DNA of 51,994 bases. It comes from a virus (taxonomy: Duplodnaviria > Heunggongvirae > Uroviricota > Caudoviricetes). This document shows, piece after piece, positions 46,795 to 48,410 of this stretch. The stretch lies in IMG/VR virus record IMGVR_UViG_3300045988_149344; one strand, written 5' to 3'. The notes beneath the pieces were generated by a model. The model did not search any database. It had not been told where the DNA came from and was given only the letters and a program-made list of their open reading frames with translations. A program made the position numbers and the translations under genes. How positions within the stretch are numbered: the stretch's first letter is position 1; each line of letters starts with the position of its first letter.

Positions 46795-46811
46795 ATTGCT
46801 CTAATAATTCC
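46795..46811 (+). promoter_or_regulatory. C1 operator-like site (14/17)
   Basis: ATTGCTCTAATAATTCC directly after the stop of the preceding gene. Confidence 0.5.
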
Positions 46812-46819
46812 ATATTTTT

Positions 46820-46847
46820 AAAACGTGATGTACACTCATCACGTTTT
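46820..46847 (+). terminator. Perfect hairpin with T-run between the two inverted operators
   Basis: AAAACGTGATG-TACACT-CATCACGTTTT followed by TTTT. Confidence 0.5.
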
Positions 46848-46860
46848 TTATTAGAGCAAT
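46844..46860 (-). promoter_or_regulatory. C1 operator-like site (14/17), inverted relative to 46795-46811
   Basis: Minus strand reads ATTGCTCTAATAAAAAA. Confidence 0.5.
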
Positions 46861-46874
46861 CTACAAGGTGCACT

Positions 46875-47093
46875 ATGTGGCCATTCCGACGGAAATATCA
46901 CTACTGGCTGATCGCCTTTGTTACGCCGACCGGCGGTATCAGGCATGTCATCACCAGGTATCGCAACAAGAGACTCACCTTAGCCAGAATTTTACAGGCT
47001 GCCATAGGTGAGGGACTGGATACAAATTGCGTAGTCCTTCCTCCTTCATACTTAGGAAAAATGACCGAAGCACAAGCTAATACGGAACTTTGA
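46875..47093 (+). CDS. Small basic protein (72 aa)
   Basis: AAGGTG ribosome binding site; first ORF after the double operator. Confidence 0.3.
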   Translation: MWPFRRKYHYWLIAFVTPTGGIRHVITRYRNKRLTLARILQAAIGEGLDTNCVVLPPSYLGKMTEAQANTEL

Positions 47094-47094
47094 A

Positions 47095-48357
47095 ATGATC
47101 ACTTCAGCACAAAACCAATCAATCGAAAATGTATCTATCCCTGACGTCCTGAATGCCGGTATCCCGGCCATTATCCAGAACATCCGGGCCGCGCAACGCC
47201 GCGTTAGTTGTGATGACCTCACAGCGCGTTTTTTTGATAATGCGGTTCAGTCAGCGGAGATGCTTCACGCACAGCTTATTGATGTTTATAACGCAGAAGC
47301 TGATAGCCATAACTCCCTGGTAGATGCAGCTGAAAATATGCAGTTGGATCTCGGTCTGAAGGGTAAAGAAATTGAAGAGCTTCAGCTACAAATTGAACAT
47401 TTGAAACGCCAGCAACAGGACGCGATCGACAATGCGACGCATGACGCCAACCAGCGTGCTGATAATGCCGAACGTATAAGCATTGAGCTGGAAACAAAAC
47501 TCAATGAAATGACCGCGATGGTTGAACTGCGGAACTCACAGATTTCAACGCTAAAATCTCAATATAAAGAGATCATGAAACTTGATCCTTTTAACCTTGA
47601 GAAACGCTATAACAAAGCTAAAAGCGAGCGACAGGAACTGCGTAAGCAGGTCGCCGACCTTAACCAACAGCTCAAAAAAACTATTAAAGATGCAAGCGAA
47701 GCGCGCGTGGCATTTGCTAATAAAAAAGCAGAGGTTACCGCGCTGGTTAATGAGAATGCCAAATTTGCGACGCTCAAGAAGGAAATGTATGGCATTACTG
47801 AGCGCCGTTTCCCTGCAAGCAAACTTCATCCGACGTTAGGGCAAATCTCCTTCTTCCCGCGCCTCCTGGCTTATGGGATCTCATCGCCTAAAGAGTTCAA
47901 TAACGAGCGTCCTTATATCGTTTCTAAGCTGGACTTTGCTTATCAGTTCTGCTGCGACATGGGCTATGCCATTGATATCCGAATCAACGAATGGTTGATG
48001 CCAAACTTCCAGCCGTTGGCAATTTTCCGCGAGTTCCAGCCGGAAGGTTGGGTAGAGTTCTTCCATGAATTGATCTGTAAAGAGATGGAAAGCCGCCGCC
48101 CGGAATTGGTCCGTCGAGTTGAGTGGGCGCAAGAGGTTATGTTGGCAGATGCAGAGCTGCCGTTCGAACCGGAATTCATTGATGATCTGGCAACTAAAGG
48201 GTTGCATACCCTGTTTGATGTGGTTACCCGCCGTCATGAGCAGTTGGTTGTCGAATTGGGTTTAGAGGAAACAGCGGCAAGAAGACTTCTCGATGTTTGC
48301 TATGCACGTAGCGATGCATGGGAAAAAGAGAACGGCGGCACTATTTACGTCCGCTGA
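47095..48357 (+). CDS. Coiled-coil protein with globular C-terminal domain (420 aa)
   Basis: Heptad-rich residues ~60-250 (LQLQIEHLKRQQQDAID...), Cys-containing C-terminal domain; followed by a strong terminator. Confidence 0.5.
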   Translation: MITSAQNQSIENVSIPDVLNAGIPAIIQNIRAAQRRVSCDDLTARFFDNAVQSAEMLHAQLIDVYNAEADSHNSLVDAAENMQLDLGLKGKEIEELQLQIEHLKRQQQDAIDNATHDANQRADNAERISIELETKLNEMTAMVELRNSQISTLKSQYKEIMKLDPFNLEKRYNKAKSERQELRKQVADLNQQLKKTIKDASEARVAFANKKAEVTALVNENAKFATLKKEMYGITERRFPASKLHPTLGQISFFPRLLAYGISSPKEFNNERPYIVSKLDFAYQFCCDMGYAIDIRINEWLMPNFQPLAIFREFQPEGWVEFFHELICKEMESRRPELVRRVEWAQEVMLADAELPFEPEFIDDLATKGLHTLFDVVTRRHEQLVVELGLEETAARRLLDVCYARSDAWEKENGGTIYVR

Positions 48358-48379
48358 TAGTTACAGCGTCACTTTTAAT

Positions 48380-48410
48380 GCTGGTGGAGTGCGCCCACCA
48401 GCATTTTTTT
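48380..48410 (+). terminator. Rho-independent terminator
   Basis: GCTGGTGG-AGTGCGC-CCACCAGC then T7. Confidence 0.7.

Follow-up and report, generated by a model that had tools for sequence, protein, structure and literature searches.

The stretch of viral DNA analyzed here (51,994 nucleotides, referred to as the window) contains at positions 46795-48410 two operator-like sites in opposite orientation that bracket a hairpin and precede the genes of a small basic protein and a long coiled-coil protein, which raises the question of what this arrangement controls and why. The original prediction invoked looping by the C1 repressor and very tight repression of a product suspected of being toxic or of deciding the lytic switch.

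Sequence comparison identifies the window as the genome of phage P1, with 99.4% identity to P1 across positions 46700-48450 and 100% identity to both P1 and P7 in the control region (46760-46900). The locus is very probably a known early operon of P1, the C1-controlled pmgR-pmgS, together with the operator pair Op86a and Op86b, working by the mechanism described below. The public genome records of P1 and P7 contain both genes, the operators, and the predicted promoter; the element is the same as OpmgRa/OpmgRb (Op86a/b), PpmgR, pmgR, and pmgS of P1 (GenBank AF234172/AF234173) and as Op(sht a/b), shtA, and shtB of P7. Because these features were annotated before, the locus is of little weight as a discovery. 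The present reading leaves the substance of the records unchanged but favors another –10 hexamer and disputes the “morphogenetic” and “sheath” labels of PmgS.

Paired C1 operators upstream of pmgR

The first operator, OpmgRa (formerly Op86a; ATTGCTCTAATAATTCC), is located on the plus strand at 46795-46811, where it carries a protein_bind annotation in P1 and P7; the second, OpmgRb (formerly Op86b; ATTGCTCTAATAAAAAA), is located on the minus strand at 46844-46860 and is annotated in the same two phages. Each matches 14 of the 17 positions of the asymmetric C1 consensus used for matching (ATTGCTCTAATAAATTT). All three mismatches of either site fall within the AT-rich tail, and neither site departs from the 13-nt core (ATTGCTCTAATAA). 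Sites with at most three mismatches to the consensus occur nine times in the window (vs 0.27 expected), a count that was reached by none of 100 shuffles. The C1 operator consensus has been published together with a count of 22 C1 operators in P1 (PMC8546580). Judged by their sequence, which is the same as that of Op86a/b in the P1 annotation, both sites are C1 operators, and the pair of inverted operators proposed originally is thereby confirmed. The proposed control over the genes of the 72-aa and 420-aa proteins agrees with the wording of the P1 record (“controls expression of pmgR and pmgS”). A text search of the literature for Op86 returned nothing relevant.

One scan for related loci recovered only near-identical copies of P1. 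Conservation was assessed with seven diverged P1-like phage-plasmid relatives (PmgS identity 71-53%), which together with the window yielded eight aligned sequences. Both operators are present at identical spacing in all eight, and their cores are kept in each of the seven relatives. One relative (L006) carries the same C5-to-T change in all three operators found, which points to a co-variation of operator and repressor.

Another inverted pair of C1 sites in the window, at 32737-32764, is presumably the ban operator Op72a,b. Like Op86a/b, such overlapping (bivalent) C1 operator pairs of P1 consist of two inverted sites with the same consensus at a single promoter. They differ in that the 17-mers at 32737-32764 overlap by 6 bp and form an incomplete palindrome, whereas the centers of Op86a and Op86b are 49 bp apart and the two sites bracket a terminator hairpin and a core promoter. 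Each asymmetric 17-mer binds one C1 monomer.

A putative terminator hairpin and the promoter of pmgR

The gene directly upstream of the operators, pmgQ (46092-46793, plus strand), is the last gene of a C1-controlled operon (pmgN-pmgO-pmgP-ppp-pmgQ) in the P1 annotation; its product matches the glycosyltransferase family PHROG 1962 (E 1e-127). Between the operators, the plus strand can form a hairpin followed by a T-run (46820-46849), which on the basis of folding and covariation is predicted to be an intrinsic terminator for transcripts arriving from pmgQ. The arms (46820-46830 and 46837-46847) form 11 perfect pairs around a 6-nt loop (TACACT), with an RNA folding energy of –13.4 kcal/mol (z = –5.5), exactly the stem length that had been proposed. 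The run of six Ts (46844-46849), four of which lie within the stem, also represents the AT-rich tail of Op86b. A simple terminator scan of the window did not list this hairpin, presumably because its rule counts Ts solely beyond the full stem.

The hairpin is kept, with compensatory changes, in the seven diverged relatives. Both sides have changed in four of the 11 pairs, with a covariation score that was reached by one of 500 shuffles, which with only eight related sequences is moderate evidence. Across these sequences, 88.9% of the cells are paired, compared with 41-58% when the partner is slid. Owing to G-U pairs, the plus-strand RNA exceeds the minus-strand RNA in stability by 5.5-11 kcal/mol in five of the seven relatives, and the G-U pairs in the relatives fit the plus-strand RNA only. 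Covariation and strand-specific G-U pairs support the expected role of the hairpin as a putative terminator of the upstream operon that acts as plus-strand RNA. The U-run following the hairpin is poor in one group of relatives (L004). A search of Rfam at the palindrome gave no match at gathering scores, and relaxed thresholds produced a meaningless match to a miRNA (E 0.31).

The entire stretch also folds into a single long imperfect hairpin (–26.4 kcal/mol), and one might argue that the 66-bp palindrome functions as DNA, by extruding a cruciform or by binding a different dimeric protein, and not through two C1 sites and an RNA terminator. This explanation is extremely improbable. The inner and outer repeats have different centers (46833.5 vs 46827.5), and the G-U pairs of the hairpin would turn into mismatches at the DNA level and on the minus strand. 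In the L004 group, the outer arms are unlike each other, which indicates that their pairing is not the conserved feature, and the operator variant of L006 is found also at a third operator that is not part of a pair.

The P1 record predicts PpmgR at 46796-46824 on the plus strand, with TTGCTC as –35, a 17-bp spacer, and TAAAAC as –10, which has the status of an annotation only. Comparison with the relatives favors an alternative at 46809-46836 on the same strand, with TCCATA as –35 (46809-46814), a 16-bp spacer, and TACACT as –10 (46831-46836) in the loop of the hairpin; transcription would then start near 46843. The loop position provides the best sigma-70-like promoter in all seven relatives (–35 TTTACT, TTGATT, or TTTAAT; spacer of 16-17 bp; –10 TATCAT or TATTAT), with nine of 12 matches in six of them. 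Since both candidates are weak in P1 itself, where each reaches seven of 12 matches, the case for the loop –10 comes solely from the relatives.

If the promoter were the one in the P1 record, with its –35 inside Op86a, its –10 at 46819-46824, and a start near 46831, Op86a would block the –35, and Op86b would stand as an obstacle farther downstream, at about +13 to +30. We consider this a serious but clearly less probable alternative. It has the GenBank annotation, an equal score in P1, and the –35-like hexamer within the operator core in its favor, but its –10 lacks the T at –7 and is not conserved; the relatives have hexamers at this position that do not resemble a promoter (e.g., TGAAGC) and possess instead the better-matching promoters whose –10 is part of the loop. 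For both candidates, the –35 is overlapped by Op86a, and with the loop promoter, Op86b would cover about +1 to +18.

In the mechanism that we propose, transcripts of the upstream operon would end at the hairpin and its dual-use U-run, and the pmgR promoter would sit inside this terminator, its –10 most likely occupying the loop of the hairpin. RNAs initiated at the pmgR promoter would have their 5' end within the descending arm or beyond it and so escape termination. In a lysogen, one C1 monomer on Op86a would cover the –35 and the region upstream, and another on Op86b would cover the start site and the first transcribed positions. RNA polymerase would be kept off from both sides, making a DNA loop unnecessary, and once C1 is inactivated, pmgR and pmgS would be produced together as early proteins.

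According to the original prediction, C1 would bridge the inverted operators into a small loop and thereby exert exceptionally tight repression on a PmgS (or PmgR) with a toxic effect or a deciding part in the lytic switch. Several observations are in line with this idea. The operator spacing is strictly conserved, the AT-rich spacer contains A/T tracts, and paired inverted repeats flank the promoter of a pmgR-like gene also in two distant lineages, which suggests that the repression of the operon is under selection. Looping mediated by C1 is described for the autoregulation of c1 at Op99. Nevertheless, this model as a whole seems rather improbable. A center-to-center distance of 49 bp is very short and corresponds to about 4.7 helical turns, so that the two sites do not face the same side of the helix, and a simple occlusion of the –35 and of +1 would suffice at these positions. 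The arrangement resembles OR/OL of phage lambda in having multiple repressor sites at one promoter and a repression that would be maintained in the lysogen; the Op86 sites are too close and out of phase for the classical loops, and they are asymmetric 17-mers.

The pmgR-pmgS pair and the domains of PmgS

The gene pmgR (46875-47093, plus strand) is preceded by an SD-like motif (AAGGTG) 6 nt upstream and encodes the predicted basic protein of 72 aa (pI 10.1), which is identical to PmgR of P1 and P7. Pfam yielded no function for PmgR, and matches among PHROGs were limited to families of unknown function. Deletion of pmgR, which is essential, results in tails and incomplete heads, and expression of pmgR in trans from pBAD complements the deletion and restores plaques (PMC9024508). 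Based on this published work, PmgR is a small basic protein required for filled, joined heads. By contrast, an in-frame deletion of pmgS yields infectious virions that plate normally (PMC9024508, text and Table S3), and a CRISPRi knockdown likewise classified pmgS as nonessential (PMC10695390).

The start codon of pmgS follows 1 nt past the stop codon of pmgR, which suggests translational coupling. Homologs of PmgR are encoded directly upstream of pmgS-like genes also in distant contigs of P1-sized phages, and the pairing is kept down to about 24% identity of PmgS. A conserved and coupled pair in which the small gene is essential and the large one dispensable is a pattern that would fit a toxin–antitoxin or an inhibitor–effector pair, though only circumstantially.

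The second gene, pmgS (47095-48357, plus strand), encodes a protein of 420 aa that differs from PmgS of P1 by one residue and matches the profile of PHROG 1660 over its full length (residues 1-420, E 1e-194). Its structure was modeled with AlphaFold2; an earlier run with 10 sequences was poor for residues 240-345 (pLDDT 72.5), and the model based on 60 sequences (mean pLDDT 88.9) was used instead. The long coiled coil that had been anticipated is modeled at residues 41-232 (47215-47790) as two long helices (residues 41-160 and 168-232) with a hinge around P165, a residue that is nearly invariant among 60 family members. It is followed by a small alpha/beta domain (residues 240-347; 47812-48135) that matched no known fold or family and carries the family motif D-W-H-x-E-x-R-T ... 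W-x-x-P ... H-P-x-L-V-x-R-x-E-W-A.

The C-terminal domain, for which a structure prediction was proposed originally as a check, is an (HhH)2 domain at residues 355-413 (48157-48333), with a five-helix fold comprising two helix-hairpin-helix units. The same fold is found in the N-terminal domain of Rad51/RadA, the C-terminal domain of the RNA polymerase alpha subunit, and the AR domains of NusA. PmgS differs from these proteins by the absence of a recombinase or polymerase core and by the presence of a hinged coiled coil and an alpha/beta domain that have no counterpart among them. The G-h-G hairpins, through which domains of this type touch the DNA backbone, read K-G-h-G in the subgroup from lambdoid prophages but are degenerate (L-G-L and variants) in P1-like PmgS, which makes DNA binding by the latter uncertain.

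Cysteines are present at positions 39, 286, 287, 328, and 402 of PmgS. Since they are not conserved in the wider family outside the P1-like subgroup, a Cys-rich metal site was rejected. The same applies to an identity as an SMC/Rad50/MukB-like protein, including the defense proteins LmuB and JetC, because the coiled-coil stretches alone gave matches, with 12-20 bits compared with the NCBIfam cut-offs of 300-1000 bits for SMC/Rad50 models; no nucleotide-binding motif or domain and no ABC ATPase heads were found in the PmgS model. All single-sequence matches of PmgS in Pfam, NCBIfam, PADLOC, and PDB (TPR, SMC, Rad50, LmuB, JetC, keratin) were sub-threshold, restricted to the coiled coil, and rejected as composition noise. 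The pmgRS operon ends, as foreseen, at a strong intrinsic terminator on the plus strand (48377-48412), consisting of an 11-bp stem (48377-48405) with six GC pairs and a run of seven Ts (–18.1 kcal/mol; z –5.3).

Putative functions of PmgS and PmgR

The mutant phenotypes bear directly on the proposed role in toxicity or the lytic switch. The normal growth of phage without PmgS leaves this idea without support. PmgR is essential, but for complete virions, and supplying it in trans restored plaques; moreover, the known immunity circuits of P1 contain neither gene (PMC8546580). In sum, the operators, the hairpin, the genes, and their putative control stand as originally predicted, but the toxic or decisive role of the product finds no support, as pmgS is dispensable.

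Database labels place PmgS among the virion morphogenesis proteins, namely as “PmgS-like head morphogenesis” in PHROGs and as “ShtB, sheath contraction” in P7, and the requirement of the neighboring pmgR for complete heads would fit such a role. The “pmg” in the gene name, however, stands for a putative function (“putative morphogenetic function” in the P1 record), with no experimental support in the sources retrieved, and the deletion mutant forms normal infectious virions. The main text of the virion-proteome paper does not mention pmgS a single time, and PmgS is therefore taken as not reported among virion proteins. Judging from the literature, PmgS is not needed for assembly and is probably not a component of the virion. 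In addition, the operon is controlled by the repressor, and a late promoter is absent nearby. The latter is based on a narrow search in which the window was scanned with a single 9-mer, the –22 box of LPhot (AAGTTACTT, at most one mismatch). It gave no match near 46.8 kb, and the matches were barely above chance. Further arguments against a morphogenetic role are the location of relatives in the early recombination/int regions of lambdoid prophages, outside the structural modules, and the (HhH)2 domain, which is typical of proteins associated with nucleic acids. A function in head or sheath morphogenesis is therefore quite unlikely, and we think that these labels are wrong.

The PmgS family comprises 122 clusters at 50% identity in a representative library. 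Shorter relatives are encoded between recT/recE- or exo-type genes and int in prophages of Brenneria, Pectobacterium, Citrobacter, and Vibrio, and an exonuclease gene is located at most two genes upstream in nine of 11 dereplicated lambdoid-prophage loci. The adjacency to recE/exo may result simply from where these genes reside, the variable “exo-xis” accessory region of lambdoid phages, without a shared function. PmgS relatives occupy the same kind of region as the early-left accessory genes of lambdoid phages (e.g., Ea22), but PmgS is not homologous to Ea22, and its gene in P1-sized phages is coupled to pmgR, with no recET next to it. Two Ead/Ea22-like genes are present in the window, 2-3 kb downstream.

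Based on its domains, the genomic company of its relatives, and the absence of a phenotype, PmgS is most likely a non-structural coiled-coil protein that tethers DNA or proteins and belongs to the early, DNA-metabolic part of the lytic program. The unfilled, unjoined heads of the pmgR deletion resemble the proheads and tails that the same work obtained with a pacA knockout (PMC9024508). One speculative reading, to which we assign a low probability, is that PmgR and PmgS form a coupled, repressor-controlled early module, in which PmgS would act on phage DNA (ends, recombination, or the hand-over to packaging) and not as a head protein. PmgR would be its small basic partner or restrainer, and the lethality of the pmgR deletion would result from an unrestrained or mis-targeted PmgS.

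P1 is a workhorse phage, yet placeholder names are still in use for about half of its genes. For PmgS, the “head morphogenesis” label has spread into PHROGs and RefSeq and conflicts with the knockout data, the gene context, and the domain content. A promoter in the terminator loop of the preceding operon, bracketed by two repressor sites, would represent a compact insulation of consecutive repressor-controlled operons, and the nested promoter-terminator design could be reused in synthetic designs. Finally, pmgR belongs to a set of just five essential genes that were recently found in P1 and lack a mechanism, and its coupling to pmgS is conserved; if PmgR restrains PmgS, phage lacking both genes would be viable.

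Operators and hairpin upstream of pmgR and pmgS

Between positions 46700 and 48450, the window shares 99.4% identity with bacteriophage P1 and 99.1% with P7; in the control region (46760-46900), identity among all three is 100%. The P1 record (AF234172) already annotates OpmgRa (“former Op86a; controls expression of pmgR and pmgS”), the predicted sigma-70 promoter PpmgR, OpmgRb (Op86b) on the opposite strand, and the genes pmgR (72 aa) and pmgS (420 aa), followed by pap; the same features appear in the P7 record as Op(sht a/b), shtA, and shtB. PmgR has the same sequence in the window, P1, and P7, and the PmgS of the window differs from that of P1 by a single residue (N113 for D). 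The observation of operators, hairpin, and operon is therefore confirmed as a re-discovery of known features.

Both operators lie where the original prediction had placed them. Op86a (46795-46811, plus strand) and Op86b (46844-46860, minus strand) each have three mismatches to the C1 consensus ATTGCTCTAATAAATTT, which are confined to the AT-rich tail and leave the 13-nt core perfect; the consensus and 22 C1 operators in P1 have been reported previously (PMC8546580). The window contains nine matches with at most three mismatches, compared to 0.27 expected. Among them are two operator matches on opposite strands at 32737-32764 (zero and two mismatches), which overlap by 6 bp, unlike the separated pair at Op86. 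A weak operator-like site at 12011 lies near the immI region (12097-12307, plus strand), where an Rfam match to isrK (55 bits) is directly followed by C4 antisense RNA (76.7 bits). Farther downstream (16138-16312, plus strand), there is a match to the Rfam family “sok antitoxin” (89.7 bits; gathering score 59), which would imply a post-segregational killing locus of the hok/sok type in this P1-like element and may represent an acquired module; reference P1 relies on phd-doc.

When the intergenic regions of the same locus were aligned for seven diverged P1-like elements (PmgS identities of 71-69% in Salmonella and Cronobacter, 63%, and 53%), the inverted operator cores were both retained at the same spacing in all seven. 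In L006, one of these relatives, both operators and the next one downstream (the Op88 equivalent) have the same C5-to-T change, as predicted by a co-evolution of operators and repressor. In the group with 53% identity, the left and right operator arms are unlike each other; therefore, pairing of the outer arms is not the conserved trait.

The hairpin between the operators (arms 46820-46830 and 46837-46847) consists of 11 perfect pairs around a loop of 6 nt, with six consecutive T at its end (-13.4 kcal/mol, z = -5.5). It was absent from the output of a simple terminator scan, and its palindrome matches none of the Rfam families. Its sequence varies among the relatives with pairing preserved: four of the 11 pairs are changed on both sides, 88.9% of the alignment cells are paired (41-58% after shifting the partner by one to three columns), and the covariation score was matched by only one of 500 shuffles. 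Because several relatives use G-U pairs, the plus-strand RNA folds better than the minus strand by 5.5-11 kcal/mol in five of the seven. Covariation among these eight related sequences is moderate evidence for an RNA hairpin on transcripts from pmgQ, the last gene of the upstream operon, and agrees with its proposed role as the terminator of that operon. The tail of Op86b reads AAAAAA instead of AAATTT because it doubles as the U-run of this predicted terminator. The strong terminator postulated behind the 420-aa gene is likewise present (48377-48405; 11 pairs followed by T7; -18.1 kcal/mol).

Position of the pmgR promoter

The annotated PpmgR (-35 TTGCTC, 17 bp, -10 TAAAAC) matches the sigma-70 consensus at 7 of 12 positions and lacks the T at -7. 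It is possibly the real promoter of pmgR, but its -10 position is not promoter-like in the seven relatives. The strongest sigma-70-like candidate in every one of them places its -10 (TATCAT or TATTAT) within the loop of the hairpin and its -35 16-17 bp upstream, and scores 9/12 in six of the seven. The P1 hexamers homologous to this candidate, TCCATA (46809-46814) and TACACT (46831-46836), also score 7/12. We therefore favor a pmgR promoter nested inside the terminator, with a putative start near 46843. Transcripts from this start would lack the ascending arm and thus escape termination, and C1 sites would then occupy approximately positions -49 to -33 (Op86a) and +2 to +18 (Op86b). Whichever candidate holds, the core promoter is flanked by two C1 sites, and simple occlusion would explain repression; the looping suggested in the original prediction would have to act over 49 bp (~4.7 turns), with the two operators not on the same helix face. 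There is no late-promoter -22 box near the Op86 region.

PmgS family and its genomic neighborhoods

Single-sequence searches with PmgS yielded nothing beyond coiled-coil noise, but a profile searched against 1.8 billion representatives recovered 122 clusters, mostly full-length (360-470 aa). An AlphaFold2 model based on a 60-sequence alignment (mean pLDDT 88.9) comprises a short N-terminal helix, two long helices (residues 41-160 and 168-232) interrupted at P165, which is almost invariant, a small alpha/beta domain (240-347) without match in PDB and BFVD searches, and a C-terminal (HhH)2 domain (355-413). Four results support the latter: the family profile matches the N-terminal domain of RAD51 (E 9e-8) and also the RNA polymerase alpha-CTD; the Foldseek TM score of the (HhH)2 domain is 0.78, and Pfam assigned HHH_5 to 17 and RNA_pol_A_CTD to 12 of 60 members. 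In the prophage subgroup, the G-h-G hairpins follow the canonical pattern; those of P1-like PmgS are degenerate, so that the domain may either bind DNA or serve protein docking. Two database entries, P0002 and P0016, combine PmgS sequence with either a cytosine methyltransferase domain (480 aa) or the Ppp metallophosphatase (463 aa); they are probably artefacts of gene calling or assembly.

In P1-sized phage contigs with distant homologs (L003, L088, L163, and L165/166; PmgS identity about 22-27%), alignments place a PmgR homolog directly upstream of the PmgS-like gene; homologs outside the model-building set were recovered by hmmsearch with E values of 5e-23 and 3e-20. A perfect inverted repeat (core ATACTAAT) stands in front of the pmgR-like gene in both L003 and L163, and its spacer (17-20 nt) contains a -10-like hexamer; paired inverted sites around the pmgR promoter thus predate the P1 lineage. 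At a distance of 2-5 kb upstream of the pair, L003 (1-3040) and L088 (1-3795) also encode giant proteins (~2260-2290 aa) that carry SNF2-type helicase domains, together with an N6-methyltransferase domain in L003; these proteins resemble P1 DarB. In the P1-like loci examined except L089, pap (a polynucleotide-kinase-type phosphatase) follows pmgS directly or after one or two genes. In L092 (2762-3310) and L093 (1349-1897), from the relative with 53% identity, an inserted Rv2179c-like gene (3'-5' exonuclease family, PF16473) comes immediately behind the pmgS-like gene, with an overlap at the end of the latter.

Shorter relatives of PmgS occur in lambdoid prophages of Brenneria, Pectobacterium, Symbiopectobacterium, Citrobacter, and Vibrio and in 62 viral contigs, where they lie between recT/recE-type genes and int. 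A recombination exonuclease is located at most two genes upstream in nine of 11 dereplicated loci and slightly farther away in the other two types (represented by L098 and L099). Since this site is the variable “exo-xis” accessory region, adjacency alone is no proof of a role in recombination. The window itself has two paralogous genes of the Ead/Ea22-like family typical of that region (50375-51100 and 51398-51817, plus strand; PF13935, E 1e-16 and 1e-37), 2-3 kb downstream of pmgRS and beyond the Op88-controlled region; L006 has one. In a recET-associated prophage subgroup (L095, 7142-7561; also L097, L100, L101, L102, L135, and L136), the PmgS-like gene is always followed by a 137-140-aa gene without match in PHROG, NCBIfam, and PADLOC, whose product possibly corresponds to a partner protein. 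Gene context places the PmgS family in early, repressor-controlled neighborhoods of DNA metabolism, not in structural modules, and the head-protein label of PmgS is probably wrong; the main text of the virion-proteome paper contains no mention of pmgS.

Roles of pmgR and pmgS

[quoted passage not shown] The pmgS knockout, like all non-lethal ones, yields infectious virions with normal restriction behavior (PMC9024508, Table S3), and pmgS was nonessential in a CRISPRi screen (PMC10695390). Therefore, although the structural reading of operators, terminator, and controlled genes in the original prediction was right, its extrapolation to repressor looping and to a 420-aa product that is toxic or decisive for the lytic switch is unsupported, and for pmgS contradicted as regards essentiality. 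The two genes are separated by 1 nt in P1 (stop to start) and encode proteins with pI values of 10.1 (PmgR) and 5.25 (PmgS, which has five Cys). Comparison across the relatives shows them to be a conserved, apparently coupled pair, and their asymmetric essentiality suggests a hypothetical relationship of partner or restrainer.

Beyond the known annotation, the analysis adds comparative support for the operators and the terminator, a probable new position for the -10 inside the hairpin loop, evidence against the head-protein label of PmgS, and the conservation of the pmgR-pmgS pair.
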